Shown here in pieces: positions 4,816 to 47,784 of a DNA stretch of 47,784 nucleotides; within the stretch, counting starts at the first letter, position 1; each line of letters starts with the position of its first letter. This stretch comes from Psilocybe cubensis. Lineage: Eukaryota. Location: positions 124,001-171,784 of the forward strand of contig JAFIQS020000016.1 in NCBI GenBank assembly GCA_017499595.2. Reading direction: 5' to 3'. A program made the position numbers and the translations under genes. The notes below the pieces were generated by a model. It saw only the letters and a program-made list of their open reading frames with translations. It was not told the DNA's origin and did not search any database.

Positions 4816-4844
4816 AACGACTTTGCTATCACCCATCAGCCACT

Positions 4845-9774: not shown

Positions 9775-10280
9775 GTCCAATTAAGATTCACAACAATCAA
9801 TCAATTGATTGTTAGGTAAGGACCCAGGTAAGCTATTTATACTCTAGACATGTGAATATTCCCATGTCGCGGTGACTCGGAGCCACGTAACCAGAGTACT
9901 CTATATCCATGTGATTCACGTCACAGTCAATAACCCACGATGTCAAAGAACAAAAGTGTTGGATCCACTTTTGACAGGTTACCATGTGCCACATCGACCC
10001 GTGACACTCTGTTCATCAGAGACCTGTCTAACTTGACAATAAACATTGACAGATTTGTGATAGTCGGTAAGATACATGACAGCTGCGCAGCATCACTTCA
10101 CGCGCTGTCATCGGATGTCTAGAACATTCCTTCTAAGAATAGCCACTGAAGAGTCTATAAAGACGAAAGGGCTGGTTGTTGGGATCCCCCAACAGCCCTC
10201 TGGCCTTCTTTCATTTTAACTCACAGTTTAAATAGTCGCTCGCACCTCGCTTCGCTCGGTGCTCGCTCCCCCCCTAAACC
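9775..10280 (+). mobile_element. 5'-truncated pseudo-LTR mini-copy 4
   Basis: Same start point (gtccaattaag) as copy 3. Confidence 0.88.
10141..10205 (+). ncRNA. Type I hammerhead ribozyme, copy 4
   Basis: GCCA-CTGAAGA-GTCT ATAA AGAC-GAAA-GGGCTG...CAGCCC-TC-TGGC; predicted cleavage after C10200. Confidence 0.88.
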
Positions 10281-10303
10281 CCTAAACCCTAAACCCTAAA
10301 ACC
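10272..10303 (+). repeat. Telomeric repeats, junction 3 (to copia)
   Basis: ccctaaacccctaaaccctaaaccctaaaacc directly abutting copia gag sequence. Confidence 0.88.
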
Positions 10304-10333
10304 ATCGAATGTCATCGACTCGAAGCGGAAACA

Positions 10334-25759: not shown

Positions 25760-27900
25760 AGGCCCAACTGGCTACGGCAGCGCGGACAAATTCTCCTGGG
25801 GCTACAACCGAGTACGTCGACATGGCGCGCGAGGGTATCGTTGACCCGTTGAAAGTTGTACCTGAGGTTCCGCGGCTGGAGCCTCGACGATAGGAGCCTG
25901 GTAATCCGCTTTGAAGGGTTGTAATTCAACTGCAACTGGAACATCAGAAACTAGAACCTGGGACAGGTTTTCAGGTTGAGAAGCACCCGAAACTTCGGCG
26001 ACTGGGGTTGTCCATAACCCGTGGTTCTTCCTCAATGCTCTCCTGCGCGGCGTCAACATCAACTGAGGGAGTTTCGGTAATCGAAGTTGGTGCCTCGGTA
26101 AGATCTGCTGCCAGAACAGGCGCAGATTTTTCGACATTCGAAGTTGAGACTTCGTCGGCGACGGCGGCGGTTTTCGTTGTTGTAGACGGTATGTCGTCAA
26201 CAGCGGCGGGCGATTTGACTCAACCAAAACCTCTGCAACCTCGGCAGGAGCTGCGACGAGAGGTTCTTTGGCCGCAGTAGCAAGCGGCGGCACAGACTCA
26301 ACGACTGGCTCTTGAGCTTCCGCGACGATTGCACTTGCACGCTCTTCAGAGACTTGTTTGAGCACTGGATCTTTGCTTCTGTTTCCACGCTTGTGACGAC
26401 TGGTGGTTCGGGCTCAACGACAGCGGGTTCATCTCGAGCTTCGGGCGTCTACAGCAGGAGCAATAGCTTCAGCTGTTGGAGCTTTGGGTTCCGGTGCAGA
26501 TTCGTCCACTTCAGCAACAAACGACGCCGACGGAGCTTCAGGTACTGCGACTTGAGATTCCGAGACTGAAGCTTCAACAGGAGCTGCGTCATCGTCAGTC
26601 GATGCATCCTATGTAACCACTGCTTCGACAACGGGGGCACGAGGTTCGATAGAAGTTATTTATGGTTCCACAGCGGTTTCCTGGGCCTCGACAACTGAGG
26701 GCGCATCCGTTGAAGGCTGCGGTTCGGAGACGGGTGCTTGGACTTGGATCTCTTCAACTGCAGCTTCACGTTCAGCTTCAACGGGTGCATCAAGAACAGG
26801 GGCCTCGACTTCCGTTGCAAAACTTCGGGTTCAGAGATAACAAGAGCCTCAGTGACAGGAGGAGAGACTTCTGCAGCTGGTGCTACGGATTCTGCAACAA
26901 CAGCAGCAGGAGTCTCGCTGACGGTGGCAGGCTCCTCAACAGCTGGCGCTGGTGCCTCTGCCTGAATTTCGACAGCTGGCTCTGGAATCTTAGCGGCAGG
27001 GGCAGCAGCAGCAGCTCCAGCGATTGCGTCTGTAATTGCGGCTCCAGTCACAATAGCAGCCGTCTCGAGGTCTGGCGTGTCGGATGTATCAGCAAGCTGC
27101 TTCACGGCCTCGACAGGTTTCTCGATAGGCATCTGCGCCTTCTCCGCCTTGGATGACTTGGACTTGGACGGCGCCGCCTTCAGCTGCACAACCTCCTGCT
27201 TAGCCTGCTCGGCGGGCTCCTCGATAATCTCTCCCATCTCGCCAACATTCAGCGCTCTTTCCTTCTTCTTGCCCTTCTGCGACGACTGCGACGAGCTCGA
27301 TGCAGTGCGCGACATACTCCAGAAGCTGAAGCGGTTCCTGCCCGACGTCGAGAGCGCAGGGGAGACCGGGCGCGCCGATTCCGGACGAGGGACAGCTGAC
27401 AGCGATGGTGGTGGCGCGGGCCGCACAGTGAACGCCTGCTCGAGAACAAGCCATTTGAGCGTCTTCTGCTTGCCGCCCTCTTGAACGGGGCCGTACAGAA
27501 GTTGAGGAACAACTGTGGATTTAAACTTGCAGATGATAAAGGTCGGCCATGTCGCTGTGATAGGATCGAGCAGCGAGTCGCTCCAGAAATCGATGAACGC
27601 TTCGTCAAGCTCGATGACTTCGAGCTTGGTAGCGCGGACAATGGCAGTCGTCTCCTTCTTGACAGGGTCTGCAAGCCGCGGGGGTGAGACGGGTGGTACA
27701 GGTTCAGCCGAAAAGTCGACGGTCTTCCTCGAAACGGCTTTGCTGCGCTTGCTCGACTTCCTCGAAAGCGTCGTGGTGACTGGAGTAGTCTTCTCCATAT
27801 CCGTGTCGAATAGCGTCGACACGAGCGGGGCCATTGCAGGCGTTGAGTCGAGGAAACCTGAGGCTGAGAACTGCACCCAGTCGCTGCCAATAGCAGAAGT
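25760..27900 (-). pseudogene. C-terminal fragment of a Msb1/Mug8-like protein gene with Ala/Glu/Pro-rich tail, frameshifted
   Basis: IELDEAFIDFWSDSLLDPITATWPTFIICK...KWLVLEQ resembles the basidiomycete Msb1/Mug8-domain protein C-terminal region. The low-complexity tail is broken across several frames. Confidence 0.5.
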
Positions 27901-27990
27901 GGCTGGGGGCTCCGTGGTGGACTTGGTACGGTGTCGTCACGTGCATGCACCAATTTATCTAATCTTATCTTCGGTATCTTGGTAAGTAGT

Positions 27991-28052
27991 ACCCCTAAGT
28001 CGAACTTGAAGTGCTTCGACAACCCCTAAGTCGAACTTGAAGTGCTTCGACA
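27991..28052. repeat. 31-bp tandem duplication
   Basis: acccctaagtcgaacttgaagtgcttcgaca x2. Confidence 0.9.
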
Positions 28053-28230
28053 ACTTCAGAAGCCACTCGACAATCGGGTCCAAATAGGGCAGGGGCATAT
28101 CGCGCTCGACGCCTTTGCAGAAATTGATGAGCGCCGATGCTGTGTGAGCGTGAACCCGCGGCTCAGGGTCTTCGAGGGCGGGGATGAAGACGGAAAATAA
28201 TTGTCGGTGGAAGCAGTGTTGGATGATTTC
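28053..28230 (-). pseudogene. PSE1: Internal fragment of importin beta-3 (Pse1/Kap121)
   Basis: IPALEDPEPRVHAHTASALINFCKGVERDMPLPYLDPIVEWLLKL matches the importin-5 motif RVxAHAAAALVNF...LxPYLD. Confidence 0.7.
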
Positions 28231-29139
28231 CTGTCCCGCGGGAGACACCGAATGTGAGAGTCTTGAGCGAGTTTATGATGGTTGCAGCGTCGTCGTCGTC
28301 GTCGTCCGTTTCGGACTCCATTTTACGCCGCCCGCTTCGCATTCAGAGCAAACAGGTCCACCACCCTCGGCGCAGACGAGTACATCATCGGGTCCCGGTA
28401 CATACGCTTCATCACCGTGGATAGCGATAGCACCGTCGGTGCCGGTGGGAGCTCCTCCGAGTCTGGCCTCGATCTATACGCATATGTCAGCGCTGCAAAA
28501 CTAACACACACAAAAAAAACGCGCCTGTTCAAGGAGAAACGACTTTCCAGACTATGCGCCGCATAAGGAGACAAAGAGTTGAAATTCCTCAGCGCACCAT
28601 TACCGAAGGAGAGGTCAGGCGAGATGGGAGACACCGAGCGCGCGGTGAACTGCGTGCTTCCGGCACTCTACGAGTCGCGTGCGTCGCGTCGTAGGAAGCT
28701 ATGTACGATGGAAACCAGATGGTGAGTGACCCATCGGGTTGCACATCCCACCAAACATTCACAATATCTACAGACAATATGCTGGCTCTCTTGCCTCCTT
28801 CTATGCATCCTGCGGCACCGTAAGCTGTGACGCCCGTCTCACACCCTCAGGATGTTATGCACAACACCAAAACAGTCAGCGGATCGACGGCGGAGGCAGG
28901 GGTATACGGGGGGCACAGTTATTGTGTATAGGCGGGCAGTTGCAGACCTGCGCGATGGAGTGTACGAGGCGCAGTCAGCGTGCACAGGAAGTCATCCAGA
29001 CACGAACGATGCGCAGGGAGTGTCCGGTGACTGTTATATCACGATATACGGAACATACGAACCACCCTCAACAGGCACACCTAACAGCTAAAATTTCTTT
29101 ATCAATAAAACGCGCATACAATCATTCCAAACACTCACA

Positions 29140-30200
29140 TTTCCTCTCCTGCCCAGCCGCCATCGTCTTTAACTTGGCATTATCCTGCTCCAGCGTGTCA
29201 AAGTCCGCCTGTAACTGCTCCATCGCCATCGCCTCCTCATACGCTAGCTCCTGCTTCCTCGACTGGCCAATTGTCCGCCTGCTTCTTCACCGCTCCAGCC
29301 ACCGCTCCATCAGCTCGATCTTTACTGTCGACTACTGGATCATTTGGTCTTTCGTACGTATTGTCCGCGCGAGACCTTGTATCTCGTCGCTGAACGACGA
29401 CACCGTCCATTTAGCTTCGACATTAACAGTCAAAACCGTCTGTCCAAGTTGTGGTCAAACGCGGTCACATATACCAACTTGCGCGCAAGGTCAGTATCGA
29501 ATCCATCAAAGTACGTCTCTGCAAGCTGATCAGATTGCGCTTCTATCCTAAATAAAGAAATGAAATTCAATGATCAGTAATGAGGTTCATATGGTGATGA
29601 CATCTTAAACATACTTGACGATGTCATTAACACACTCCATATCCCTAAACTCACCGCGCCTTAACAAGTCAATGTGCATATCGATGCGTTTCTCCGGGGG
29701 ATCAATTTCAGGGTACAATCTTCCGATATTCAAGAACCTCTCGACGTCGCACCGGCGAACCACCGCAGGGAAGCACTTGCACAGCGTCGACAGTCTTGAT
29801 ATTCTACCTCTCATCTATCAAAAAAGAAAGTGCGAGTGCAAAGGCGAAGCCAACAAGTCATAAATGAGCAATGGTGTTAATGATATCGAACAGGAAAGAC
29901 CACGCACCTCGCATACACCGACGATGGTGTCTGTGAAATCCCCCTTGAGCGTTGCGAGGGAGGTTGTGGATGTGCGCCACGACGTGGTTGTTGAGATCAG
30001 CCTTGTACCCCATACGCCGGAAGAAGAGGTAGCAGCTCGTCGCGTGGCTTGGACGTGTATTGTAGTAGGTAGGGCTACCTGACGTGGTTGTTGAGATCAA
30101 CCTTGTACCCCATACGCCGGAAGAAGAGGTAGCAGCTCGTCGCGTGGCTTGGACGTGTATTGTAGTAGGTAGGGCTACCTGACTTCTTCATTCTTCTACT
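29140..30200 (-). pseudogene. NIP100: Degraded, intron-containing fragments of dynactin p150 (Glued/Nip100/Ro-3)
   Basis: SCYLFFRRMGYKADL, TIVGVCE|MRGRISRLSTLCK..RRCDVERFLNIGRLYPEI..PEKRIDMHIDLLRR, LAETYFDGFDTDL and KIELMER...KKQAD...EQLQADFDTLEQDNAKLK, with stops, frameshifts and internal deletions. Confidence 0.65.
29981..30183. repeat. 100-bp tandem duplication
   Basis: 29981-30080 versus 30081-30180, with one visible mismatch. Confidence 0.9.
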
Positions 30201-30244
30201 CGCGCGTCTCCTGGGACATCAAGCGTCGAGTATAGTGTTTCAGC

Positions 30245-31900
30245 TCACCGGTGCAGACAGTGTTGGAAATGGCGTTCAGGCAACAGTCCCAATGCGGCTA
30301 CGTAGGATATGTGAAAGTCCCGCTGGATAAGGCCGGATAATACAGATGAGCGCATCAGGGTACAAGTCTCCTGTTCGGCGCACGCTGAGCGTGTTATGAG
30401 CGTGTTCGGATCCAGCCGGCCCGGAAGACCAGGAGCACCCAGCGCGTGGATCGTGCCAGCCCAGATACGAACGAGGCCAGAGAATGGACGTCTGTAGGTC
30501 TTGGGTCCTGTAGAGTTGTCCCTTAGTCTTGTCACAACCCAGTACCGCAGATGAACGTGTGAAGTACGACTTATCTTGAGACCTGAGAGATATGCTAGCA
30601 GAATTCCATAGATGATAGGTCAAACTGGGGACCTTCATGTTCCTCCATGTCATCAGAAGTGTCGATCTTCGTCTCTTCGTCTCGATCTTTTGAACTTATT
30701 TACTTCTTGGAGGATGTTCAGGTAGATTCTTTGTCGGGTACCAATGGTGCGAGGTGTGTGTTACACGGTAATATGGAATTTCAGGGCGCGCGCAGATAGT
30801 GTCGGTGTATAGGTTGAAAACACCAGCGTCGTTGGCTTCTGTCATGAACCCAGGAAGAATTAGTACATTGGAATCGCCATCAAGAAAAGGTCAATACTCG
30901 TAATGAGGCAGCATCGTTATTTCGTCGTTATGTTCGTACGACTTTTGTATGGCCACAACACGAACGAAGCTGGCCTCAATGATAAATCGCTTGAATTCTG
31001 ATTGGAGAGAAGGACTTGACCATGCTATGCCAGTGTTGAAGTGTTCTGTACACCCACCTTATCACTCCCAGAACCATCGCGAGCTGTCGAGTCGACGATG
31101 TGTTCCGTAACACACTCATCCCGTGTCCATCCCGTCAATGGTTGTCTTAAGGTAGTTCGAGGCGGCTTCGAACACGACCTCGCCCTTCGACCGCAGATTC
31201 ACCTGCCCATGGGACTGGGCTGTGGGTAGCAATATCCGGAAACTGTGTTACTAGGTGTTAATTGATGTGTAGTGATCAGAACAAAAATTATTTGCTTACA
31301 CTCGTGAAAGGGACGGATGAAACAGTACGCTGCTCGCCTGCTGAAGAAGTAGAGCTGCTCCAGCTGTCTGAGCTGTTCCTGGTGGTAGATGGGAGGGAAA
31401 AGAGGAGCTGCTCCGGGGTGCATGGGAGGAGCAATTTCAATCCTCGCCTCCTCGTGCATGATTCGCGACACGTCGACGTCATCCATGTTCTTCTCCCCAG
31501 AGAGTTCCTACCACAATTGTAAACCTTTGGCGGTCGAAGAGTCGACATGCTGGACAACACATCGAGCCACTAACATTCTAATAAGCCTGAGAGTGAAATG
31601 CTTCCAAAGACAAATTGCTTACCAAAGTGGCCTAGTGCTACTCAGCTTGCAGAGGTTGAGATACAGGGAGACAGGGTCGGCTGTCGAAACACGAAACACA
31701 GGCCAGCAGTCTCTGAGAGACTGCTGGCCTGTCATCCCCAACTTTTGCTTCGGGGTGTCGTAGCTGGGTTATCGTAGCTATAGGTTAAAACGGAAAATGC
31801 TTCTGCTTGGAAAATTACACTCACTTGACTTTCGTGCAGTAGTACTCTTCATGTTTTCCAACTCCAAAGCGTATGCTACACGCTGACAATACAAGGGAGC
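30245..31900 (-). CDS. Multi-exon hypothetical gene or pseudogene (boundaries approximate)
   Basis: Exon-like ORF 31199..31486 (MDDVDVSRIMHEEARIEIAPP...) with flanking GT/AG sites. No family recognised. Confidence 0.3.
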
Positions 31901-32099
31901 GCTCTACTTCATATACTCATTTGTTGGACATTAACTACATTCTAAAAGGTTCAAATGTCCTATAATACTGCGCAAGGTGTGTTGTATTAATCATTCTACA
32001 CTACGTATCGTACTTCATCCTAGGTGATACCATCGTGCCTGAGTGTGGGTTCATGCTAAGAGCGGAAAGTTGTCACAGTCACTTCAGTGCACTTGATAA

Positions 32100-33137
32100 G
32101 TGACAAGGATTTTCATGCCGTCGGTTTTTCAATACGGCATAGTGTCTTTCCGGTGTGTTTTTGCTGCCGTCTTTGATCCATATTTGCACGCTCTTTCTCG
32201 GCTTGAGCGGCATGAAAATCGTCCCTTCTATGATCATCGCGCGCTCATCGTTTCAATATGCTCTTGCAGGTATAAACAATGAAACCGACTTGGGAATGAA
32301 TCTCAAGTATTTGCGTACTAGTATGTTTTGCATAGGAAATGGCATTAAAACTTAAAATCACTGGCGTTAACATGAATTATACGAAAAAAAAATTATCGAG
32401 GTTCTAAGAATCGAGATAAAGAGAACCAAAAGAACAAGAAGGAGAGATATTAAAAGAGACCATGAGTGGAGGATGGGCGTGAAGATGAACGAATAACAGA
32501 ACGATGCTTCTGCTACACTGGATCGAGTAAACGTTCTGCACATTCTGCACTACAAAGGCACAGTAGTCAGAATAAATCAGTGAATAATTAGTTATGAAAT
32601 ACGAACCCGCTGGACTCTTGCCTAGCGATTTAATTCAATTTCAAGGTAATGTGAGCCCGAGGTCTGGGGAGAAGGGCTGTTCGGGTCGACGCCGGTAAAG
32701 AGATATATAATTCGGCCGCTGACAGATCGGTGAACAAAGATATATCGATAGGGGTTTCGAACTCCATGAACCCTCTATAAGCTAGGATTCAGAGATGATA
32801 ATACACATTTAATCAACGTACGCACCCCCATGATATTCAGCTCATTCTGCGACCAGATAACAGTGTCCCGTGCCTCTAAAATATTCCTTGTTGCCGGCTG
32901 AACAGCAATACGGAGGTGGATGTGGAAGGTAGGGATAGATAGGTGCCTCGAGATTGTGGATCGACGTTGGACATGTTGTGCAGAACGCAAGGTTGGAGAG
33001 GAATCCGGTGAATAGTCGAACCATTTATGATATTCCTCGTGAACAAGTTGAACCAAGAATAAAGTAACGAGGACAGATATCAAAAAGATAAAAGTGTCGT
33101 ATAGCTTGACTATGAGAAATAGCATGGGAGAAAGCAT
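32100..33137 (-). CDS. Hypothetical multi-exon membrane protein (3' end approximate)
   Basis: ATG at 33137, hydrophobic N-terminal segment FIFLISVLVTLFLVQLV, a GTGCGT donor near 32826 and further hydrophobic exons. Confidence 0.35.
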
Positions 33138-33437
33138 GGTGGTAGGGGTGGAATGAGTTGGAGGTTGACTTCGCGTTGGTCCTTTTAAGCGTCTTTGAGG
33201 CTTTTAACATAAAGAACAAAGGCCTAAATAACACGATTCATTAGAAACAAAGAGGTAAACGATTCGGGCCGTTTAAGCGGGTCAGTACCCCACGGAACTG
33301 GCCGTTACTCAAATGCGAGTCTGACGCGCCTCCTACGCGACCAGTGAGTGAATTAAAGCGAGCTGTTGCAGTGTAAGTTATGGGTAGATCTGATCTCACG
33401 TAAAGGTCGTAAAATCGTAATCGTACATACAAATCTA

Positions 33438-36400
33438 TTAAACGGATACAACTCGAGATAAACTTACACAAACGGCAACTTCTTTCCCTTCCCATTGAAT
33501 GACGCACTTGGAAAAATGAGTATCAACCATAGACAAGGGAATGACCTCAATGAATTCCTCCAATTCGTTGCTCCATATTTTTGCTCTAAGATGTTGATAC
33601 CGCATATAGGGGTCGACCTTGATTTTTGCAGCGCGAAATGGTTTTGCGACAAGCCAGACATCGTCGTATAGAAGTGGCTTGCGGAACACTACAATGTTCT
33701 GGATGCAATACGGACCCGAGGGTGTCAGAATCTGACTGTTTCCTTCATGGATGGAAGAACTGGTGTATGAAATGCGGCCCGATGTATATCGATTTATTAA
33801 GTTTGCACGAATATGACGAGTAGATACCAGCTCAGCGCTGCCTTGGAAGAAGTTTGTAAATGCATTGAGAATGTTGTCGGGAAGTTCAACCTCCAGTCTG
33901 TCGCGATACAGGTTATTGTCAAGGATGATATCTGTATCTTGATCGTCGGTTCCAACCGCCTGCACCTTGTCCGTAGCGTAGTTTGCAAGGAAATTTTGAT
34001 TCTGAGGTTGGACGATGCTCTCGAACATTGAAGCGCACTTGGCAATGATAGGAGGGCAGGTGACCTTGGAAAACAGTGCCCTAAGATTGCTTCTTCTATG
34101 CCACGATTCTCCAATCGTAGCCTCATACTCGCCTATCACGTATTGTTAGGTAGAGCATGAGAGTTCTATGATTGACGGCTTACCAGGATGGTAATTAGTA
34201 TGTATTTGTTGCAGTGTCCCAATCATACGCTCGAAAGGGAACGTCCACCATCCATGAACAGGCCCATACGCCGCAAGGAATTCCCCAAGATGCATTGCCA
34301 TGTGGTGATTGGGATGGCAATTGTAGTCAGGAAATAAACGTGCCAAATTTTGACGGTACGTGAGCATATGCCCAAGATACAACCTTTCATGTGCAGCAGA
34401 GGTTGTCCGCGAAGTGATGACGGAGACGGCTTGGAATAACTCCATCGTCATGTTGAGGAGATCTCGACGTTCCTGGCTGGTAGTGTCTGTCCCATCTGAG
34501 GACCATAAGCGTATGAGAGTAATTGGGAGGTAAACAGATCCCGCCGCTCGCCATTGATCCGACTTTAACTTCGGTCCAGAGGAAGAGATTGATATAGGAA
34601 TAGTGGTTGCCCATGATGGTTGCACTATCGCGCTGATATCTCGTCGCAATTCGTCCATTTCCTGCGAGGTCAATATATATCCCTGCCTGCCGGCTAGTCC
34701 AGGAGAGGTGACGGAGGCCGGTAGTACTATTGGCTGTCTTGATCGCTAAGGAAAAAGCGAAGACAACGGTAAAATTGATCAGATTTATGATCTTGAGAAA
34801 AGGCGTGCAACGAACCCATTCCACTATTAGTTTTGCCAGCTCCGGCTTGTGATACCTCTTATCAGGATCACGGGAATCCCTCCCGTTCTCGGTAACAGTG
34901 CTCGGGATGCATCCAAGTCCTCTGCCAATGTAGATCAAGGAGACCAGGTGGCATCCCTTCCCAGCCCAATGTTTGGCATGTTTGTCAATCGTTGACTGTA
35001 GGTCCGATCCATGGAGAAAGGGCTCCTTAAGCCATCCTTCCAAGCGTCTGATGCTCGCTTTTTGCTGGACGTTGAAGCGATCGGGGTCCAAATTATTGGC
35101 ATCGTGAGCAAATAGACGGCCTGCATGGGCCGCAGATTCGGGAAGACCACCCATCGGAATCTTCTTGCATCCCAAGATATTTTGGAAGTGTTCCTTTACC
35201 AAACCCAAAAATAGGTTGTGCATTGGATCTATGGGAAGATGCTTGGTTGCGTCGTAGTACGGCAAACGAAGCAACTCCGAGGAGCGAAGTCCTGACAAGT
35301 CAAAGGATCTATCCGCCAGGTCCTGAGTTTGTGCATTGCGATATTTTTCCGAACGATTTCTACAGGACTCGTTGGTGCGCCATGTCCAGGTCGTATAGTC
35401 GATGTCGTTGTAAGTGTTCTTGGTTTTGCTGCAAGTACAAACTGAACAGAAGAATTCGTGACTATGTGAGGAAAAACCTCCGATTTTTCGAGCAGCAGGA
35501 AGATCGGCGATAATAGCAATGATAGCGCAATATATACATCGCCCAAGCTCGTAAAGAGCCGTCTTTGAAAAGCGAACTCCATCCCAGAATAGCAGTAGTG
35601 CGTCGACCAAAGGCCGCAAGTACGGGTTAAGGGCGTCCAGACTTGGCTCAGAAGGGCCAGGGATAATACCCGCTAGGAATATATTCTCAGGTTTGTAGCG
35701 GATATCGATAGGAAGATTGAGACATATCAGCGCGATGACGCCAATTGACACCTTTTTCCCAGCTGCCAAGTTCCTCAGAGGGTTGAAGAAATCGAATCCA
35801 AGAGAAAATAAGTATCTCCCGGAGTCCTTGTCGCCGATTTTGCCGAAATGCGTCCTTTTGTCGTGTCCTTTGAAGTTTTTGATGCATGTCGCCTGGAAAA
35901 TATCCTCGATATCGCCTTCGTTTTCTTGCATTCTATCCCATGCTGAATCCATCGTCTTCTCATAATTGCGGCGTGATAAGAGATTGGCCATCCAGTCATG
36001 GAAGCTGAAGGCAATGTATGGCTTTATTGGAGCGTTAATGGTGGCTTTCCCCAAACTGTTTTGGGCGAACTAGCAATTCTCTGCAGGACCTGACAGGGCC
36101 ACCTTGCTTGTGAGGCCTTCTACGTGCACGACACTTCTCTGGGTATATGGGAACGCCAGACTCCAATTTTGGCGGATAAATTTCGTGACACTTGGGGCAT
36201 GCTGCATAAACAGTGCTTTCCGCATCGATATTGAAGTAGCTCGTCGCCGTACGAACGTCGCGAGGGAATTTGGAGAGGAGAAGTTTGATTTTGTTCGGAA
36301 GGGTAGAGTGACTGGAAGAGCCCAAGGCACTGAAGGCTGTTTGTTCAATGATAAATTCGGAAATTTGAAAAATCCAATGGCAACCCCGTCGAGGAACGCC

Positions 36401-37188
36401 AAAAATAACTTGGACCGACACGACCATGAATGCAACCAACTGCAAGATGGTAGTTGCGGATTCCAGGATGGGCTTAAAATGTCGTCCTTTTCCATAAATA
36501 TTAGCCTAGAACCATATCGAATGAACTTTCGGTTACCTGAATTGTACATAGGAGTCGAGGCGGCAACTGTTTCGCGTTTCCCAAACTCCTTCCTATAGAG
36601 AGTTTCGATTCGCTTGAGATCATGCTGAAGTAGGCCGAGCTGCATTTGCGCATTATCGATGAGTGTTTTGATAGAAGGATCCTTTCGGATCGCCGAATGT
36701 TTGGCTGTGGCCAGCACTGTCGCAGATCTTTCGATGAATCCATATGCTGAGGAGCACTTATCCAGTCCTCCAAGTAATGCAGAGTCGGTGAGAGGTCCGG
36801 GATTAACTTGCAGAGCTTCTATCCCTCGTTTGTGTACGTCTGTTTCATCCAACAGGCCACCAAGCTGAGCTGCCACTCTCTTTTTCGTTTCGAAGCGAGA
36901 ATCGGAATCAGATAATTGGGATGTGAACGATGGAATTGATTGAGGGTCCGACAGTGATAGACGACTCAACGCTTCTTCAATGGCTTGATCATGCTTAGCG
37001 AGAGTTTTTGATTGTACATCCAAGGCGCGTTGCTGTTGCTTTAGGTCTTCTTCTTGTTGGCGTCGCTGATGTGCTCTGAAGTCCCTGGGTTTAAGTAATT
37101 TCCCCCTTCGATTAGTTCCTGGGTCCACATTATCGTAGCACCCGTGGACTTTACATATGCAGAGTCGATCGCCTATTGCAGGGGGCAT
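33438..37188 (-). CDS. CACTA/EnSpm (Tnp2/Transposase_21-type) transposase, intron-containing, with an apparent frameshift near 36050
   Basis: FSLGFDFFNP, LICLNLPIDIRYKPENIFLAGIIPGPSEP, LRPLVDALLLFWDGV, ADLPAARKIGGF...FCSVC, IDPMHNLFLG, KLKSDQWR, PNHHMAMH and YGPVHGWWTFPFERMIGTLQ are hallmark CACTA transposase motifs. Confidence 0.88.
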
Positions 37189-37739
37189 GATGGTATGATA
37201 ACGTCTAGTACCAAAATTGATGCTACTTTATAGTCACAGAGATCGGGAGTATTAAGAAATAGCTTCTCGGGAAGGAGAAGCACGCATGATATCCATTTCA
37301 CAATATATAAAAATCGTTAAGATCGGTATTCGACTGGAACCGCGTCCAGAATTTGGTTGAAAACTGGCAGTGCAGTAATCCTTCGGCTAATGTCCATGCG
37401 GCAATATGGGCAGCCCCCCTTCCATCCCTTCTTATTGTCCCATGCTTCAAGGCAGCTCGAACAAAAAAAGTGACCGCAAGTCAACCTGTTTTAGATATTA
37501 GTAATGAGCATTATCTTCGGTATTGCAATGATTCGCTGGAAAAACATACATTACCGGCATATCTATGTGGCAAGTGCATATTGGGCAAGTCGTATTTTGG
37601 ACGACGACATCGCATAACTTGCGAAGTGCTTCAACTTGACGCTGCAGCTCGGCTGACTCCTATGAAACATTCAGAGAGCACATAAAATATTTCGACATGA
37701 CTCACTGCATGCGATTTTTTCAAGTCAGATTGACATTTC

Positions 37740-39038
37740 TCATAACAATGGCGGAGATTCTAAAGTTTGAACGCTTGTGTAAGGATACAACTGGAATTTA
37801 AGAATCAAACACACCTTTATATAAATGTCAAGATATTCCCGTTCTTCGACTTTCGCCTCCATGTTATCGATTGACTGCAGTCTTGATATTAGTAGCACAC
37901 TGCCTGAATGACAAGATGGAAACCTTACCTTTTGAAGACGCGTGTTTTCGTTCTTGAATTCCTTTACTCTTGTAGTCAATAGTTCTGCCCTACTCGTTAA
38001 CACTTTGTTCCTCTGCAAAGGTAGTCCGTCAACTTGGTCAACTTTATACGGTAATATGTTAAATATAATGACGAACCGACTCAAGTTCGCCGTTTGTTTT
38101 CTCCCGTTCCGACAGTTTGTCACCCAAAGAGTCATTCAGCTTTTGCAAGTTATCTTCATTATTCTTATGCTTTCAAATGTTCCCAGATGTTAGGAAGGTA
38201 TGATGTTGAACTAGGACAAATACAACTTACTACAGTAATTGTGTCAGAAAGATTCTGTAATGTGCGTTGATTTTCTATCAGCGTTGATTCCAATTCATTG
38301 TTTCGATCCGAAGCTCTCGCTAGCTGCTCTTGACATTTTACTAGTTCTACCTCCAGCTCACGGATGCGGACATGATTTACATTTCCGTCAGGTTCGCGGG
38401 TATGGTTAACCATCTCGGGGACGACAGCAGAAAGAACATCCTGGTTGTGGCGCGAAAAATGTGAGATCGTTTAAGGACAACAACAATGTATGCTTACTGG
38501 TCTGATACTATCCATAGGTGCATCATCGGGCTAAGAACCGTGTCAGGTTTTGCCGTATGAAAGACAATCGAAATTAAAATACAAGGCTGATGTCGGAGTG
38601 CTCCAAAGCAATTTGGGGCGTCCTGGCTCTGTCTGGCATCACATGGACGCTTCTTTGGCGTCGGGGACTAGGATTGGCTTTGTCTGGGAGTAAATGGAGA
38701 TTTCTGTGGCTTCGGCGATTAGTATTGCGGATTGAAATGATATTCAGATCCTGCCATTCGCGTTAACATCTTGCCAAATCATGCAGAAAATATACAGGCA
38801 GCCGTAACCCACCTCGCTTTGGGTCAACGCGTTTCCAAAGGGCCGCAGCTCGTCGAGCTGAGAGATAATCTCAGTCAGTCATCGCTCTAAGCACCAAATC
38901 GAAACTTACGTCCAAGGTTTCTGCAGAATTACGCCCTGGCGCAGGTGACGCATCTTGATGATGATTGATATTGGTGGTGCGACTCTGCCTGTTCCTCAAG
39001 GCATCGTGGATTGTTTTTCTTGTCCTGCGGTTCGACAT
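37740..39038 (-). CDS. Hypothetical multi-exon coiled-coil protein
   Basis: ATG at 39038 (MSNRRTRKTIHDALRNRQ...), short introns, and exons RIRELEVELVKCQEQLARASDRNNELES and LQRNKVLTSRAELLTTRVKEFKNENTRLQK. Confidence 0.5.
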
Positions 39039-39293
39039 GAGTAGAATTGGTGGAGGAAAACTAACTGCCCGTATCGCGTCGTGTGTTATATGTATATACC
39101 TTGCCTTTGTTTAACGACACGCCCATTTGGGCCTTTGCGCATGTACTTGATGATAAACATCTTTGCCTTTATTAAATTTGGCACATGTCGCTACACAAAA
39201 AAAACACCGAAAAAACACCCAAGAAATACGTACGCAAATTAAGAGACATAAAATCCGCAAAAAGTTGGTACACGATGGACTAGTTACATTGCA

Positions 39294-42015
39294 CTACTGA
39301 TTTTGACTAGGTCCGCGATTATGCATAGCTCGCGTTGTATTCATGACACGCCAGTTCAATTCTCTTTCTTTCTTTGTTTCGGGAACAGTACAAAGAAACT
39401 GCGGATCGAGTTCCAATTGCTCGCCAGTTAAGGAATCAGGCGAGCCGACGGTCCTGGCCACAACGGATAGAATAATGTTGATTTTCTTGGTTAGCTGATC
39501 TAGTCGGTGATGAATGCGACGAACGTATTTGCCGCTGTGATCTCCTTTTATGACGACGAGAAGGTTGTTGTCGTGAATTGGATGAGGGTATTTAGGGGTG
39601 ACCCAACGGGGTTCTAATGAAATCCATGTGTGATATTTTTTATGTCGGAGAACAACCTCGTTGCCATGAAGCTCGATAGACACTGCAATTAGCTGCTTAG
39701 AAAAATCTCCGCCGTCAACTACAGCATTCAGTTTAACTCCCACGAGTTTTGGGTTCAAGAGGACATGTGGGGGTGGTGCTGGAGGCATCCACAATGGATC
39801 AGACGCCACGGAATCAGATAACGGAGTTCTCGAAGAGGGGTCCCAAGCTGGACTAGGTGGAGAAGACAAATTATTTGGTGCTGGTGTCGGAAGGGGCGTT
39901 GCACTACCAGACGGCCTCTCCATCAGATAAGGGTGATGGGCGGATGTATCATGACCTTGCTCGGGTTGCGGCGTAGACAAAGTTTGCGTTGGGGTAGGTC
40001 GAATATGACCCTCACCGGGATCAAGGAACAGGACGAGCTCAAGAGAAGATCTACGTTGAAAATAATGAGTGTTGCATGACCTGTGTGAGATGGAATGCGC
40101 TTACGCAAATTCAACGACGTCGTCGTAACGGACTGATATTCTGTGAAATGGGGCATTCGGGTCGTATCGCGTCAACTGCATGTGCAACGTTATAGTATTG
40201 TCATCGAGATTTTCCTTGACATCCTGAATTACTCCGTATTCGCCTTTTCGAGGATGGTGCTGCTTAGATATCTTCACTTTTACTCCACACCATGGATGTG
40301 GAGGCGTCTTGGGAAGGGGACCAGATTCTGGCTGGCGCACATAAGGGATTATGGCAGTTTGTTCTGGCTCGTGCTTGTGGTGCAGCACGACGGGCTCCTT
40401 TGCAATGTCTACAAAGTTGACAAAAACCTCTGTTGACTGTCAAGAGATAAGTAAGCCAATAGAGTTGCAAAAGTAGAACGAATAACAAAATGGAGACCTC
40501 ACTTCAATGACCTCGTCACCATCCCTAAAATAAGTAGGTATTTCACCTTCAAACTTCTTGCTGACAAAATGAACTCGATCATCTTTGAGAGCAACTACCC
40601 AGCCTGTCTTGCCAGTATGATGTCCACCCCGTACACAAACATGTTGTCCGATTTTAACATCCTTCCTGATTTCTTGCCACGGCACACGTTTTGTTGGGTT
40701 GTCGGCTAGAGGTACACCGTGTGTCCCTATTTCGAGGACTTCCGCATAGTAGGTATCCATAACCTTCAAGATAGCTGGGGCAAAAAACGACGTAGAGGTT
40801 GAAGGGGTGCTGCAAATGAGAACCGCGTCGCCTTCTTTCAAAGTCCATTCGCGCGGGCGTGGCATATGCGAGCGATTAACTGCTGGGTGTTGGCTCATTC
40901 TAAACATGGTGTAGAAGTCATGGGGTATGTCCTTGACGTTAACTGTGAATGAACGGTGGTCCAAATTTTGGGCCAGAAGCCCTTGTTCGAAGTCCATATC
41001 GCGAAAGCAGTAGCAATCAGGCCCACGGCTCTGCACGTCGGTTGGGAAAAGCTGTCGAAAGTGATCCGGATCGAAGAGCTTAGCAGCCGGCTTAACAGTC
41101 GATGATTTTCGCTTGAGGGGGTTCTGTGGGGTCGTATGTAGCCGAGGAATGAGGAGAATACGGGCATGTTGAAAACTTTTTTGTGAAACCACGCCAACGT
41201 CTCCCTTGTACAAGCCTTTCTTGATGACTACCCATGCACCGACGTCCACGGGACCATCCCTCATCCCAAGCACTTGACTATACTCTGAAGAGTCGATGAG
41301 CTGTCGTTTGATACCCAAGCCGTTACGCAGTACACCTGGTGTCCGTAGAAGAAGGTCGACGAGGGCTTGGTTCATTTTACATTCGATATAGATACTGCCC
41401 TGTGTTGATCCTCGAGTGAATGCGGAACGAACCTGATGTACTTCCGAGACTGTGCTGAGCAGAGACATCACAGCCTGTTCTTCAATACCAACCTGCGAAG
41501 ATCCATTCAGTTTAGAACGCCCAGTGTCAATAACGGTAGGGTACGCACTCTACATTCAACCCGCCACAGTGGATAATCATCCGCCCTAGGTATGTACAAC
41601 AAACCATTGTCATGGAGTGTATCGTCTGGATCTTCAGGAATGGCGAATCCCCCATCTCCCGCGGCATTGATTCTGGACTCGATGCGCGAAATCAAGCGCT
41701 CTAATGCTCCCTCGGTATGCCTATGAACTGATAACTGGGTCGGTAGAACGGAATGCCCAACATCCGGGGGTGTATCATCGTCGATGAATCCATCTCAATG
41801 GCAAGGGTTATATTAGTAGGGTAAATGTGTTTGAAGTATAATATTCACCTTCTCTATCTATTTCTCCGGATCCCGTCTGTTCGTCTTCCTCAGAAATTTC
41901 GTCGTCAACTTGAGCTTCGGTGTCCAGGAACTGGCGGATTCTGGGATCTATCTGTAATAATGTTACTAACCTAAACGGATTAAGATATCAAGGAATCATG
42001 ACATACCTTCTTCAT
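39294..42015 (-). CDS. Divergent Spt5-like transcription elongation factor (acidic N-terminus, NGN domain, multiple KOW motifs)
   Basis: Spliced MKK|IDPRIRQFLDTEAQVDDEISEEDE...|DGFIDDD...PRADDYPLWRVECR|VGIEEQAV...SAFTRGSTQGSIYIE (NGN); KOW motifs VGAWVVIKKGLYKGDVGVV...LLIPRL, IGQHVCVRGGHHTGKTGWVV, GVKVKISKQHHPRKGEYGVIQDV and LLVVIKGDHSGK; a CTR-like PAWDPSSRTP. Confidence 0.82.
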
Positions 42016-42615
42016 TGCGATTTTCGCGAAACACTCTGGTCTGCGCTACACTGCTTGTGCTGTGTGGTCATCAGCTGGTCGTTATTAAGACACGATCGCA
42101 TCATATTTTCTTATTGTGCTCGTAGGTGGAGACTCGTTCAACTCATGTATTTTTGTTTTTTTTGTTATTCACGTACATCACCTCTAGCTAACTTCATACC
42201 AACATTGTTTAAAAACGTACCTATGGTTCTGCTACTCAAGGCTGTCGTTAACGTTGAGGAAAAGAGAAAGCGTGAGAATATGTTGAGTAGCTCAATATGT
42301 ACCCCTCGGAATTTCAAGCCGCTCAAGCCGATTATCGCGTGCGGTATTCTCCTCGGCAACGCGGCTTGAAAATTCCGGGGGTTCATCATGGCGTGGTCGG
42401 CATTTTCTCACGGTTTCGTTCTCTTTCCACCCATAACACACCATGTCGCTCAGTGCGTAAGTAGTAGTAAATATATTTACAGTAGATCGTAAATATGTGT
42501 ACAAATTAGTTTACAAACGAACGAAAGTCGGAACGATGGAGAACCGCCAAAATAAGACAGGAAACAGAAAAAACAGGAAACAGAGCAGAAGACGCTCAGA
42601 TAGAGCAGAAGTCGC

Positions 42616-43181
42616 TCAGGGCATTGTGAAGGAGAGGTCCTTTGGGATGCGGAACCTTGGCTGTTGGCGAACAGTTTCCACAAACCTAGGTACTGTTAGC
42701 GTTCTTCTATACTCTCAGTATCGCCAGCTCACCTCTTCACTGCGTGGTCAGCCAACTTCCCATCCCGTATGGTGAAATTGACGAGGTCCAGACTTAGACC
42801 TTTGCGGAACACGACGACATCCCCTCTCCATCGTGCATTTCCCCAGCGTCTAAGAGATTTGTTGCGAGGCAGAAACTTGTGATTCTTAACGAAGATATGA
42901 AAGCGTGTAGTCCGCCCTTTGTTAACGATCGACACCACGCCGTCATGTATGTGTGGCTGCAGCGATTTCCCGCCCATCAATAAGTCCAGTCTAGGACTCC
43001 TCCCGCTCGCGTTTGCAAGAGTGTGTATTTTCTTCGTTACAGCACGGTTTGCATCGACCGCATAATATCTGGCATTAAGGGTCATATGGAGATCCTTGGT
43101 CGAAGTGAGTCGTTATTCATATAAACTTCGATTTCATCTCACCCTTGTAGTCGACCGGAAGGTCATCAACGATGATACCAT
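42616..43181 (-). CDS. Small basic hypothetical protein (three exons)
   Basis: ATG at 43181; main exon ...QPHIHDGVV...FHIFVKNHKFLPRN...WRGDVVVFRKG...; last exon FVETVRQQPRFRIPKDLSFTMP*. Confidence 0.5.
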
Positions 43182-43385
43182 GTCGGCGAAAAAGTATGGA
43201 GGTGGATGTGGCGGTAATTAGGGAGGAAAGTATGAGGCGCGAATACGGTTTGGCTGCTATCTTTTAGGTGAGTCCCTCTTTGTTTCCTTATTCCCGGTAT
43301 TCACAAAGAGTTTTTGAATAAAGAGCCCCCATCTGAGTGTACAAAAGGTGACCTCGGGAAGGCAGGCATCCTCAGTATCATACCC

Positions 43386-46300
43386 ATGTCGTCCACCCGA
43401 CGGGAAACGTTGCCCCTCAAGGAGAGGATCGTGGCCTTACTTACTCCTTCGGCAACTGGATCTTCCACTGATCAAGAACCCTCCTCAATGGACACATCAC
43501 CTGATTACCCGACGGAACGTCTAGAACAAGTAGAACAAGGAGGAGCTGGAGCTACTTTGTCCAACGCTACGCCTTCTAATGTAGCGGTTTCTTTTCCAAT
43601 TCCTCCACCCGGACCTGCCGCAGATGAACACGGTGCACGTACAGCCTCCATTGCTCCCTCTGTTTCTCAGCCCACCAATGGCGCTAGTTTGACCAATCAG
43701 GTTCCTGTAAATGCGGTTATTCTCTTACCACCCCGGCTTGCTGCAGATGACCAGGGAGCCCAAGGATCTTCAGTCCCAAATCGTGTTGCTCCCTCTGTTT
43801 CTCAGCCCAGCAATGGCGCTAGTTTGACCAATCAAGCTCCTGTAAATGCGGTTACTCTCTTACCACCCCGGCTTGCTGCAGATGACCAGGGAGCCCAAGG
43901 ATCTTCCGTCCCAGATCGTGTTGCTCCCTCTGTTTCTCAGCCCACCAACGGCGCTAGTTCGATCGATCAGGCGCCTTTCCGGTTTGCTACAGATGTTCGG
44001 GGTGCCCAAGGATCCTCCATTGCGAATAGTGTCTCTCGGCCATCCGCTGGACATATCCCACGGATTGGGTCTTCCGACGTGCTTTTTCCTGGACATTTCC
44101 GACAGAACGAGTCTTCCGCCAACACTAATCCTCCTCCGAACCCTGAAACGTCTATGGACATTGATCCTACACTACCTACGTCGTCAAATCCCAGTAGCAC
44201 CTCTACATTTCCACGGTTTTTTATACCCGTTTTGTCTGGAAATTTGTTCAATTTCACTAGAAGTGATCCGAACCAGTCTAACCAGTCTAAGGCGAAGAAA
44301 CGACGAGCTGCACCGGAAGACCATACCACCAAAGTCCAAGTCATCGAACAGAAAGACGTCGACATCGCAGAGCTGAGCAAGCAACAGGCACGTTACCCAA
44401 AATCTACTTTTCTTGTCATTTATGTATTCATTGCTTTTTTAGATCAAGCAGAGGGAAGAGGTGCTCAAGAAAATCATTGATGATGAACGAGCGGAAGTAT
44501 GTTAATTTATTTCCTATGTTGCAAGATTTGCGTATTTACCACCATCGTACAGCTAACTAAGTCGAAGAATGCCATCAAAAATGCTGAAAAGAAAGCAGAA
44601 AGGAGCAAAAAGGAGGTAGAGGCTGTACGTTCGCAGTATACCAAGCTGTCGAAGGCAATGCGGACGGAGAAGGAGAGCTCCAAAGGGCTTGAAGAAACTG
44701 TTAAAACTCAACAAGGCGACCTCTCGTCAGCGTTGATCAAACTTCGGCGTGCAGAGTCCTTATCTAAAGCATACGACCGCCAGCGTCTTGAAGCTCAGGA
44801 GCGTCACGAGAAAACGAATGCCGATCTCGAAGCTGCGGTTGCTTCGCGAGGTCAACAACTCTTCGCACAAATCTCAGATTTAGAAAACGACATCGCTCGT
44901 CTGCAGCAAGAGAAATCCAGCGAAGTCAGTACGTTACAGCGGCAGCTCCAGCAAGCAAATTCGAGGATTGAAGATTTAAGTGCCTCACAAAATACAGCGG
45001 CCCTTGCACAGGAACAAATTAGCTCTCTTCAGCAACAGCTCCGGGACGCGAATTCGACAATTGAAAATCTCAACGCATCGCAACGTGCAGCAGCAACGTT
45101 ACAGCAGCAGCTCCAGCAAGCAAATTCGAGGATTGAAGATTTAAGTGCCTCACAAAATACGGCGGCCCTTGCACAGGAACAAATTAACTCTCTTCAGCAA
45201 CAGCTCCGGGACGCGAATTCGACAATTGAAAATCTCAACGCATCGCAACGTGCAGCAGCAACGTTACAGCAGCAGCTCCAGGCAGCAAATTCGAGGATTG
45301 AAAGTTTAAGTGCCTCACAAAATACGGCGGCCCTTGCACAGGAACAAATTAACTCTCTTCAGCAACAGCTCCGGGACGCGAATTCGACAATTGCAAATCT
45401 CAACACATCGCAAAGTGCAGCACACGCACAGGACCAAATCAATGCTCTCCAACAACAGCTAGAGCGCGCAAACACGACACGTGTGGAAGATCAACAAACT
45501 ATCACGGGCCTCAATGAACGGTTGCGTGTTGCGTCAAACGAGATAACCCGCCTTACAGCACAATTACAAAACCAGCGAGAGGAGTCGCAGAAACAGTATC
45601 ATGCGCTCGAACGCGATCTCAAGTCCCAAATGGATCTCCATCAACAAAAATCAGCGGACGCCGAGAACGCTCTGAAAGCAGAGCAAACTAACCGAATGGT
45701 TTGTCTGTCAATCTTTAATCATGGCATTGTTGCTGATACAGAGCACAGGCCGAGATGAATCAAATGAAGGCCACTTACGAGGATACGGTGGTAGGATTCT
45801 AGTTTAGCCTATGCCTCAACAAATCCGACTGATAAGGTATCATTATTAGTCCAGCCTGCGTCTCCAAGTTTCCAATCTGGCACAACAATGTCAGGCAAAT
45901 CAAGGTCGCTTGAACGAGCTGGAATCAAGCAATACCGAATTCGGTAACACGACAAGTGCGTTGGAGGACATATTAAAGAACGAACGAATTAAGAATGAAG
46001 TAAATCTGTTCCCCTCCTTGTCAATCTTCGATTCTGATCACACCTCCAAGGTTTTGCAGGCTCGCATTAATTCAGTTATGAAGAACAGAACTCACAATAC
46101 TGAGGATGATTATGAACCAACGGAAATTAGGAGGTTGGATGCCCGGCGGAGGCTGGTATGTTAAACAATCCATTCGTACGTAGTACCTAATAATTTACCT
46201 CGATGTCTTCTAGATTGGGATCAACAAGCGCAATGCCGGGTTTTCTATACATTCACGAGTACGCAATAATGTATGTGGTGATCTTGTTGATCCTAACGAG

Positions 46301-47784
46301 GTATCTTAGATTGCCCAGCGCGGACAATCAGCTGTTCCACCGTCAAATCCTCCTCAAAATGAAGCCTCGAGGGATGAAGATGACGAAATGGTAGATAGTT
46401 CTCCGCTCCGGAATTCGCCTCGAGCTCCCAATTCGTCACCCCCGCTGGACTCAGACGACGAACATATGGAAGATGGGACAACACACCAAAGACCTGTTCC
46501 AAGATCAGCATCACCTCGGCGATATATAATTCCGGGTTTTTTTCCTACAAGATATACCACAATTCCACCATCTCAAAGACGCAGGGATTCTAACCGCGCG
46601 ACCCCTATCCCTCCTACAGGTCAGTCAGCAACAGAGCGATACTTTGCCGCTGCTATGCAACGGCTAGGGCGCCTTCCCGCTTCAAACTCTACCATAGCGC
46701 CTACCTCTGCTACCTCTGCGGTGAATGATCCTTACCGTGCTGCCTATCAAGCTCGTCATGCGACCCGCCCTACTGTCAGTCCTGTCGTTGATCGTACAGT
46801 TCCAGCGATGCCTACCACGCCAACCACGCCAAGACATTCGGCCTCCGAAGTGCGAACGTCTAACACATCTGTCCCTCCCAACTCCTCAACTGCAAATCCT
46901 CAACTCGCTGCCTATCAAGTGCGTCATGCAAATCGCTCTGGTGCCAGTACAAATCCTCAACTCGCTGCCTATCAAGCTCGGCACGCAGAACGCTCTGGTG
47001 CCAGTGCCCAGCGCGCAAAATCTCCTGCCACTGCTCAGCCGGCTCCTCCGATGGCCAACACGCCAAGGCATCCGACTTCGACCGTTACGGCTCCCAATAT
47101 GCCTTCAGACGATGATCAGCACCCTTCGCCACGACCCAATACCGATAACATGCTGATTGAATGTATACAAACTATGACTGCCAGTGTCAACGGCTTGCGG
47201 GATGATTTGGCAAACGGAAGAGGACCCAGAGTACGTCAGACGCCTACGAAAGTCAAGTCTCCCTTCAAAGAGAAGGCTCCAGCTAGGCCTCGTACAATTG
47301 ACCGCACACAGTTGACGGTATAGTTTTTACTACCTATATATCAATGCTTTACTTAAGCCCAGAATTTTTAGCAAGCAGTGCGCCTACATCTGCGCAAATG
47401 TCTCGATCTCCCTGCAGATCATCGTGACAGCCAAATCTACTCCGATCTTGATAATATTCACATCGCCGACGAGGTTGAAGTGGATCGTTTAGAGCGCCGA
47501 CGACGAGATCCTCCGACGATGACACCTTTCCAGTTGTATTTTGACAGAGTCAACACACAATGGAACCGTCACATGGCAAACCTCTTTGCAGATTCTTTAG
47601 TGCGACAATATCCAGAATATCGGGGGCAAGAGGAAGAAATTGAACAATGTTTCCTTCGGCGTCTCACTACTCTAAGGGATTACATGTCCAACGCCATGCC
47701 ACGGGGGGATGAAACTGAACAGGATGCGGGAAATAGACTGTTGATGGAGAAAGAGGGACGCGACCGGTTTAAGCGGGTTCGTCG
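43386..47784 (+). CDS. Large multi-exon protein with tandem repeats, long coiled coil and Pro/Ser/Thr-rich region; runs out of the window
   Basis: Long exon ORFs 43386-44390, 44530-45698, 46313-47317 and 47371-end, separated by ~55-nt introns. Confidence 0.7.
43651..43970 (+). repeat. 135-bp (45-aa) coding tandem repeat, about 2.4 copies
   Basis: ttgctccctctgtttctcagccc at 43651, 43786 and 43921. Confidence 0.9.
44931..45425 (+). repeat. 165-bp (55-aa) coding tandem repeat, 3 copies
   Basis: acgttacagc.gcagctccag at 44931, 45096 and 45261. Confidence 0.9.
46893..47006 (+). repeat. 57-bp (19-aa) coding repeat, 2 copies
   Basis: caaatcctcaactcgctgcctatcaag at 46893 and 46950. Confidence 0.85.

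Follow-up and report, generated by a model that had tools for sequence, protein, structure and literature searches.

Spt5, the large subunit of DSIF, is an elongation factor of RNA polymerase II (Pol II), and the C-terminal repeats (CTR) of the canonical protein are a phospho-regulated platform for other factors. There are several specialised members of this family. In plants, KTF1 (also SPT5L or RDM3) is the partner of Pol V in RNA-directed DNA methylation. Bacteria have specialised NusG paralogues (RfaH, ActX and others), some of which are found on plasmids and islands, and those of the RfaH type consist of two domains and are recruited by the DNA signal ops. In Paramecium, Spt5m is presented in PMC5416832 as a meiosis-specific Spt5 paralogue for a special transcription linked to transposon control. 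On the side of the transposons, PMC12730594 describes fungal EnSpm, Plavaka and KDZ elements as carrying TET/JBP genes, which its author reads as an escape from methylation silencing. Here we have analyzed a stretch of 47,784 nt of the genome of Psilocybe cubensis (GCA_017499595.2, JAFIQS020000016.1, 124,001-171,784), hereafter the window, to which all positions refer. It contains an Spt5-like gene, Spt5L, upstream of a transposase gene of the Tnp2 (EnSpm/CACTA) type. Spt5L is an intact paralogue of Spt5 and a member of a large family of gilled mushrooms (Agaricales). That it is an accessory (cargo) gene of Tnp2/EnSpm-type transposons, whose product would occupy the Spt5 site on Pol II, is the explanation that we favour, and we hold it to be evenly poised between right and wrong.

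The Spt5L gene starts with an ATG at 42015 and ends with a stop codon at 39296-39294 of the minus strand. It has six exons (42015-42007, 41951-41849, 41793-41549, 41492-40503, 40436-40105 and 40050-39294, stop included) and five introns of 54-66 nt, all of them GT-AG. The spliced product coincides in every letter with an annotated protein (P0291) that bears the NCBI name 'Transcription elongation factor SPT5 [Psilocybe cubensis]', and exon 4 matches at 100% an entry named 'Transcription elongation factor SPT5, partial [Psilocybe cubensis]'. A first-pass annotation, made from the sequence alone, had proposed at these exact coordinates an intact multi-exon gene with the architecture of Spt5, that is, an acidic N-terminus, an NGN domain and several KOW domains. 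Both the gene and the architecture are borne out. The identity as Spt5 is backed by three independent measures that agree with one another: Pfam, a profile search of the PDB and the predicted fold.

The Pfam model Spt5-NGN (PF03439) matched Spt5L with 28.3-28.6 bits (cut-off 22.4), and was also matched by 21 of the 26 long relatives scanned. The KOW model, located at residues 401-427, was above its cut-off of 22.3 bits with the exon and with the partial protein (24.9 bits) and below it with the full-length protein (20.9 bits). The check for both domains with hidden Markov models that the first-pass annotation had suggested was thus positive, in the case of KOW on the exon and partial protein. 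There was also a sub-threshold match of KOW5_SPT5 at residues 203-231. When the PDB was searched with a profile of eight family members, 19 sequences matched, all of them named Spt5 with the exception of the KTF1/RDM3 chain 8hyj_W (E 2.4e-26, N-terminal part). The best match, 8qsz_Y (E 5.9e-54, profile positions 8-622), could be aligned from the acidic FLD.EA.VD motif through the NGN and KOW domains to the first TPAW repeat of the CTR; the acidic N-terminus of Spt5L was in this way aligned to that of an Spt5 chain. The AlphaFold2 model, built with 74 relatives, had a mean predicted local distance difference test (pLDDT) value of 79.8, with 490 residues at or above 90 and domains predicted above 90, the NGN domain among them. 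Its top Foldseek matches were Spt5 chains in Pol II elongation complexes (E 8e-26). By parts, the model matched KOW1-Linker1 of Spt5 (4ytk, TM-score on target 0.83) and KOW2-KOW3 (4ytl, 0.80). A further KOW barrel, with strands modelled at residues 502-558, aligned with the final pre-CTR KOW of 8qsz_Y. The acidic N-terminal region is probably disordered, judging from its low pLDDT. Across an alignment of eight paralogues (A2) there are invariant residues in the cores of both the NGN and the KOW domains, those of the NGN being C118, G121, E123, S142, A143, F144, G151, Y154 and E156.

Spt5L shares then with canonical Spt5 the acidic N-terminus, NGN, KOW1-linker, KOW2-3, the pre-CTR KOW and a TPAW-type motif. 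In other respects they differ. Canonical Spt5 has an array of CTR repeats, whereas P0291 has a single unit of the AWDP type in its 811 residues, as the first-pass annotation had noticed, and no array was found in any of the six other members counted, with one or two units each. In the alignment with 8qsz_Y the unit faces the first of the TPAWN.. repeats of that chain; A628, W629, P631 and P636 of the unit are invariant in A2. Besides, KOWx-KOW4 is apparently missing from Spt5L, because between KOW3 and the last KOW about 120 residues of 8qsz_Y face no position of the family profile and the model has there a low-confidence linker of only 30 residues; the structure 5oho was matched weakly (TM-score 0.41). 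On the other hand, Spt5L has at its end an additional module, a predicted tandem similar to KOW6-7 followed by a helix. Modelled alone (residues 650-811) this module reached a pLDDT of 95.4, and its best Foldseek match was KOW6-KOW7 of human DSIF (5ohq, E 1e-4, TM-score on target 0.66). It is family-specific and well conserved in A2. Finally, the canonical gene is single-copy and conserved, in contrast to Spt5L, which is multicopy and fast-diverging.

To estimate the extent of this family we used exon 4 as a phmmer query over 1.84 billion cluster representatives, which gave 622 matches at E<=1e-3, 223 at <=1e-10 and 62 at <=1e-30. The 34 matches with source names that were examined come all from Agaricales, and the genera with Spt5L were Psilocybe, Panaeolus, Pholiota, Flammula, Cyclocybe, Collybiopsis, Dendrothele, Lentinula and Amanita. 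The listing of annotated clusters was mixed with unrelated tiny bacterial proteins, and only members checked against the window were used. In P. cubensis alone there are four or more divergent types (P0291, P0003, P0004 and P0092) with a mutual identity of only ~40%. Of the P0004 type, one assembly has five copies, each on a contig of its own, and a second set of records has another five, all of them 98.4-99.9% identical. Panaeolus cyanescens has eight or more divergent clusters, all of them from contigs 3.6-19 kb long. In a FastTree phylogeny of 31 proteins, weakly rooted and with long branches (the only outgroup was a protist Spt5, P0290), copies of the same species were spread over several clades. 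Two proteins taken by their length as candidates for the canonical Agaricales Spt5, P0122 and P0145, turned out to be paralogues when scanned. Our analysis indicates firmly that Spt5L belongs to a large, fast-diverging, multicopy paralogue family, so far seen only in Agaricales. The gene is therefore not the sole Spt5 orthologue of P. cubensis, and the view of the first-pass annotation that it is a diverged paralogue holds, with several ~40%-identical types and one of them in five copies per assembly.

A family like this might be interpreted in two main ways. The dispersed near-identical copies are, together with the repeated gene pair described below and the precedent of the TET/JBP cargo, the reason to think of carriage by a transposon. 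The main rival is a host-side family of lineage-specific Spt5 paralogues, comparable to KTF1 or Spt5m and involved for example in non-coding or silencing-linked transcription, that would evolve fast and be multiplied by segmental duplication in transposon-rich or subtelomeric regions, the adjacent Tnp2 being a coincidence within a transposon island. We regard this as possible though rather doubtful. Specialised Spt5 paralogues of the host do exist, according to PMC5416832 and 10.1101/2023.04.30.538882. However, without a mobile carrier it is hard to see how five copies that are 99% identical came to lie on five contigs, and the scattering of same-species paralogues over the clades is like that of transposon lineages. 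Neither is the resemblance to the plant factor complete. KTF1 is also a specialised Spt5 paralogue tied to transposon biology and its chain matches our profile, but the WG/GW Argonaute-hook region was not found in the fungal proteins (one WG/GW in the 811 residues of Spt5L, and from zero to four in six other members), which argues against the host interpretation. Moreover, KTF1 is a silencing factor of the host, and Spt5L is fungal, multicopy, located beside a transposase and perhaps element-borne. The likeness to Spt5m, as another lineage-specific paralogue, is one by description with no sequences compared; Spt5m is a host gene and is not known to be multicopy or linked to a transposase.

The order of the genes on the minus strand of the window is ORF-X (a small open reading frame), Spt5L, a gene with a RING domain and Tnp2. 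The transposase begins ~2.1 kb downstream of Spt5L. The first-pass annotation had placed Spt5L 2 kb upstream of a CACTA transposase on the same strand, and this was right in distance, strand and Tnp2 domain, with the correction that the RING gene lies in the gap. In order to look for the same arrangement elsewhere, metagenome contigs were scanned with an alignment of eight sequences as query, and six loci with a relative of Spt5L were recovered. Five of the six end within the gene or at most 0.6 kb downstream of it. In the only one that reaches far enough, L006, Spt5L occupies 773-3600 and a Tnp2 close to full length occupies 5395-8310 of the same strand. The reading frames are ~0.8 kb apart, and the two proteins are only 24% and 35% identical, respectively, to their counterparts in the window. 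The same-strand pairing first noticed in the window recurs then in the one independent locus where it could be seen, and the order and strand of Spt5L followed by Tnp2 are kept in the two examinable loci over a great divergence, which is suggestive, though the sample is small. To this linkage adds a degenerate remnant similar to the 5' region of a P0003-type Spt5L, found right after the transposase of the window (31% identity over 101 residues by blastp). Such a recurrence of order and strand at 24-35% protein identity speaks against a coincidental neighbourhood of host paralogues.

A different possibility is that Spt5L is mobile on another carrier, be it a unit of its own with ORF-X, a transposon of another class or a non-autonomous element, and that Tnp2 is a separate insertion, nested or adjacent. 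ORF-X has no Pfam match; the clusters closest to it in the Atlas have 70-128 members and consist of unnamed proteins of Basidiomycota. In two other annotated loci, proteins of the ORF-X type (P0294) have accession numbers one above that of Spt5L, and in gene models of P. cubensis and P. cyanescens ORF-X is fused to Spt5L across an unusually long gap of ~685 nt. In favour of another carrier are this association, the many family members located on short contigs, the negative search for a pair of terminal inverted repeats (TIRs) around both genes in the window, and the loci L001 and L002, where no Tnp2 was found in the 5.8-6 kb upstream of Spt5L. However, a relative of ORF-X appears in none of the six metagenome loci, and L006 repeats the pair with Tnp2 at a short distance, and we consider this alternative improbable. 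In L002, a Copia-type retrotransposon (gag, integrase, RVT_2; 911-5596) is located directly upstream of the local Spt5L. A scan of viral contigs gave 29 pattern matches, none of which was confirmed.

Several of our results weigh against transposon carriage. The linkage sample consists of two loci, the window and L006, and the RING gene and ORF-X are absent from the latter; therefore the unit is not uniform. In Cyclocybe aegerita an Spt5-like protein and the only placed Tnp2 protein share a 1.07-Mb contig but are 78 accession numbers apart. This was the single coincidence when the lengths of the contigs of 20 Spt5L proteins were compared with those of the best 120 of 525 Tnp2 matches, a comparison of little weight for this reason. 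No transposase domain was found by Pfam in the 26 long family members scanned, and blastp detected no resemblance between the Spt5L set and 120 Tnp2 proteins (the best 120 of 525 matches). Among the annotated proteins searched there was none 100% identical to the transposase of the window. As to the borders of the putative element, we searched the window for TIRs of the CAC... type with 3-bp target-site duplications (TSDs) enclosing Spt5L and Tnp2, and no convincing pair appeared. The raw reads of two other strains covered 27785-47784 with a flat depth of ~16x and without a step at any border, so that the segment has no more copies than its flanks, at least at >=90% identity. Contigs of two further runs span the segment, which was thus present in the four runs, with no presence/absence polymorphism among them. 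The flat depth and the presence in all four runs agree with a host family. For the protein identical to P0291 there are five accession numbers, belonging to three or more contigs of one assembly, and this, together with the flat depth, indicates large duplicated blocks or redundancy of the assembly rather than a small mobile unit, again a better fit to host paralogues. The abundance of transposable elements in the window, and the Copia element upstream of the Spt5L of L002, also agree with these paralogues lying in a transposon island. The claim of the first-pass annotation that the factor is transposon-encoded stands accordingly only in part: there is a multicopy, dispersed paralogue and a recurring pair with Tnp2, but neither TIRs and TSDs nor a step in depth were found that would mark out one mobile unit.

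On the same side of the balance is the condition of this particular copy. The two coding differences among those listed are both non-synonymous (V782I and T581M), and one run, X9, has an insertion in the last exon, at codons 721-724. Given these changes, this copy of Spt5L may be dispensable or decaying. Two contigs of X9 end at 39560-39567 with an overlap of 8 bases and continue with 27-28 letters that are the reverse complement of each other (CACATAAGACAG...), as if a transposon with TIRs had inserted into the exon and duplicated 8 bp of the target. Both the insertion and the replacements would fit Spt5L being a captured copy of a host gene without a function of its own, a transduplicated passenger similar to those of Pack-type elements or a pseudogene in decay. 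Nevertheless, the reading frame of 811 codons is intact with five clean introns, all the folded domains are confidently predicted and the family-specific C-terminal module is conserved. The whole set of domains is kept at 24-57% identity across at least nine genera, with the invariant residues of NGN and KOW cores. A passenger without function is for this reason very improbable.

The transposase that accompanies Spt5L has also been analyzed. Transposase_21 (Tnp2) matched the minus-strand reading frames at 37227-33441 with 48 bits (cut-off 28.6), tblastn with five full-length Tnp2 homologues spanned 37161-33477, and the catalytic part shows 44-65% identity with the Tnp2 of other Agaricales. A run of C has in the window one base too many, at 36049, which breaks the frame. 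The base is missing in the four other runs (22 of 22 reads in X11, 14 of 15 in X12, and the contigs of X9 and X7), and therefore the frameshift is either strain-specific or an error of the assembly. Without it there is a single reading frame of 705 residues (36505-34390) that keeps 72 of the 83 columns invariant in nine homologues. Of the 11 missed columns, ten correspond to alignment gaps and only residue 333 is truly substituted (C to A). For this reason the transposase looks largely intact once that base is set aside. At a piece of 60 bases of this gene, 34209-34268, we found 62-135 loose-ended reads on either side against a local depth of ~15, an excess that indicates the presence of this piece in many other genomic copies. 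The RING domain of the gene between Spt5L and the transposase was matched by zf-C3HC4 at 37320-37490 (27.5 bits, cut-off 21). All the features of this neighbourhood are listed in Table 1.

Table 1. Spt5L, its predicted domains and the neighbouring genes in the window (residue numbers are those of the Spt5L protein).
Feature	Position	Strand	Basis and remarks
Spt5-like gene (Spt5L)	39294-42015	minus	811 aa; own gene model, identical to annotated P0291
Acidic N-terminal region, residues 5-45, RQFLDTEAQVDDE...	41771-41948	minus	Translation; spans intron 2
NGN domain, residues 111-195	41265-41575	minus	Pfam Spt5-NGN; spans intron 3
KOW1 and linker domain, residues 200-335	40845-41252	minus	Foldseek, 4ytk
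KOW2-KOW3 region, residues 340-465	40389-40832	minus	Foldseek, 4ytl; spans intron 4
One further KOW barrel, residues 495-570	40020-40301	minus	PDB profile alignment; spans intron 5
Single CTR-like unit, residues 621-636, SPPSPAWDPSSRTP	39822-39869	minus	Translation; inside disordered stretch
C-terminal module, tandem beta-barrel (residues 660-785) and helix (786-804)	39318-39752	minus	AlphaFold2 and Foldseek
ORF-X, small gene, 127-140 aa	42732-43181	minus	tblastn of P0294, P0295, P0293 and P0002; directly upstream of Spt5L
Coiled-coil and C3HC4 RING gene	37317-38470	minus	Pfam zf-C3HC4; several small exons, 5' end not fixed
Tnp2 (EnSpm/CACTA-type) transposase, ~3-4 exons	33441-37227	minus	Pfam Transposase_21 and tblastn
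Degenerate remnant like the 5' region of a P0003-type Spt5L	32829-33068	minus	tblastn, E 2.3e-7; directly 3' of the transposase

The rest of the window is also rich in transposable elements, with a reverse-transcriptase-like reading frame accompanied by telomere-like repeats and a copia-like polyprotein in addition to the Tnp2 gene. The first is located at 4160-10308, where a reading frame of 1188 aa (4812-8378) with reverse-transcriptase-like motifs is flanked by direct repeats of 300 nt in four copies. Telomere-like runs of CCCTAA(A) are found at 8488-8536, 9220-9254, 9740-9774 and 10274-10308. This region could be a telomere-associated retroelement or indicate a subtelomeric location. At 10286-14290 there are two serial long reading frames that correspond, by eye from the translation, to a gag-integrase-reverse transcriptase polyprotein of copia type. 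All 20 copies of the 9-mer GTCAGTGCA in the window (0.41 expected by chance) are located between 20974 and 22056, where there is also a small inverted pair at 21976-22063; these look like subterminal repeats of some element. Plus-strand reading frames at 43272-47323 include a Q-rich coiled-coil and tandem repeats of 135 nt (two to three units, 43651-43976) and 165 nt (three units, 44931-45425), and one of the runs has one 135-nt unit less. Comparing the strains, there is a strong bias towards C>T and G>A in the differences over 27785-47784 (in X9, 51 of the 81 changed places), a pattern to be expected if methylated cytosine were deaminated in silenced DNA. Besides, there is a structural polymorphism at 30430-31174, where 745 bases are skipped in a contig of X9 and the reads of X11 and X12 no longer follow the window beyond 30429; termini were not seen there when this region was read by eye.

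Coming back to Spt5L as transposon cargo, a possible mechanism can be put forward. The gene would travel with Tnp2/EnSpm elements, just upstream of the transposase and on the same strand, for which we see about an even chance. With less confidence, the conserved NGN and KOW1 would let its product replace the host Spt5 on the clamp of Pol II during the transcription of the element, a suggestion that comes from the domain content and from analogy with the bacterial NusG paralogues. With a factor deprived of the CTR repeats, and apparently of KOWx-KOW4, such a polymerase might be uncoupled from the pausing, termination or heterochromatin-linked control of the host, and this would favour full-length transcripts of the transposase. 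The more general proposal, that the Tnp2/EnSpm transposons of gilled mushrooms encode a stripped-down Spt5 of their own, displacing that of the host and escaping pausing, premature termination or silencing coupled to heterochromatin, is tentative and we find it on the whole somewhat unlikely. With the bacterial proteins Spt5L has in common the universal NusG/Spt5 family and the idea of an element-specific paralogue that takes over the polymerase for long transcripts, but those are bacterial, have two domains and are recruited by ops; a signal similar to ops was not looked for at Spt5L. The TET/JBP cargo is another case of a host-type chromatin or transcription gene beside the transposase of basidiomycete DNA transposons. 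However, it belongs to a different protein family, and in that case complete elements with TIRs and TSDs are defined in PMC12730594, while for Spt5L no such ends were found.

Our search of the literature gave no description of Spt5 paralogues with a link to transposons of fungi, although a mention in the 2014 PNAS paper on KDZ and Plavaka or in its supplements is possible. A word search within PMC5751038 gave no report of them in fungal transposons, and the text of PMC12730594 does not contain the words Spt5, KOW, NGN or elongation. Hundreds of diverged copies of Spt5 in a single fungal order are unusual, and even more so with a dispersal at 99% identity and at least two pairs with a transposase. 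Should they be host genes, fungi would have in them an analogue of KTF1 or Spt5m. If they are transposon-borne, eukaryotic transposons would bring their own polymerase accessory factor, and a route through elongation would be added to the known anti-silencing cargo (TET/JBP). The family would also provide natural separation-of-function variants of Spt5, with NGN and KOW domains and without the CTR. In that event these transposons would be the first eukaryotic mobile elements known to have a member of the NusG/Spt5 family, mirroring the RfaH-type paralogues of bacterial mobile DNA.

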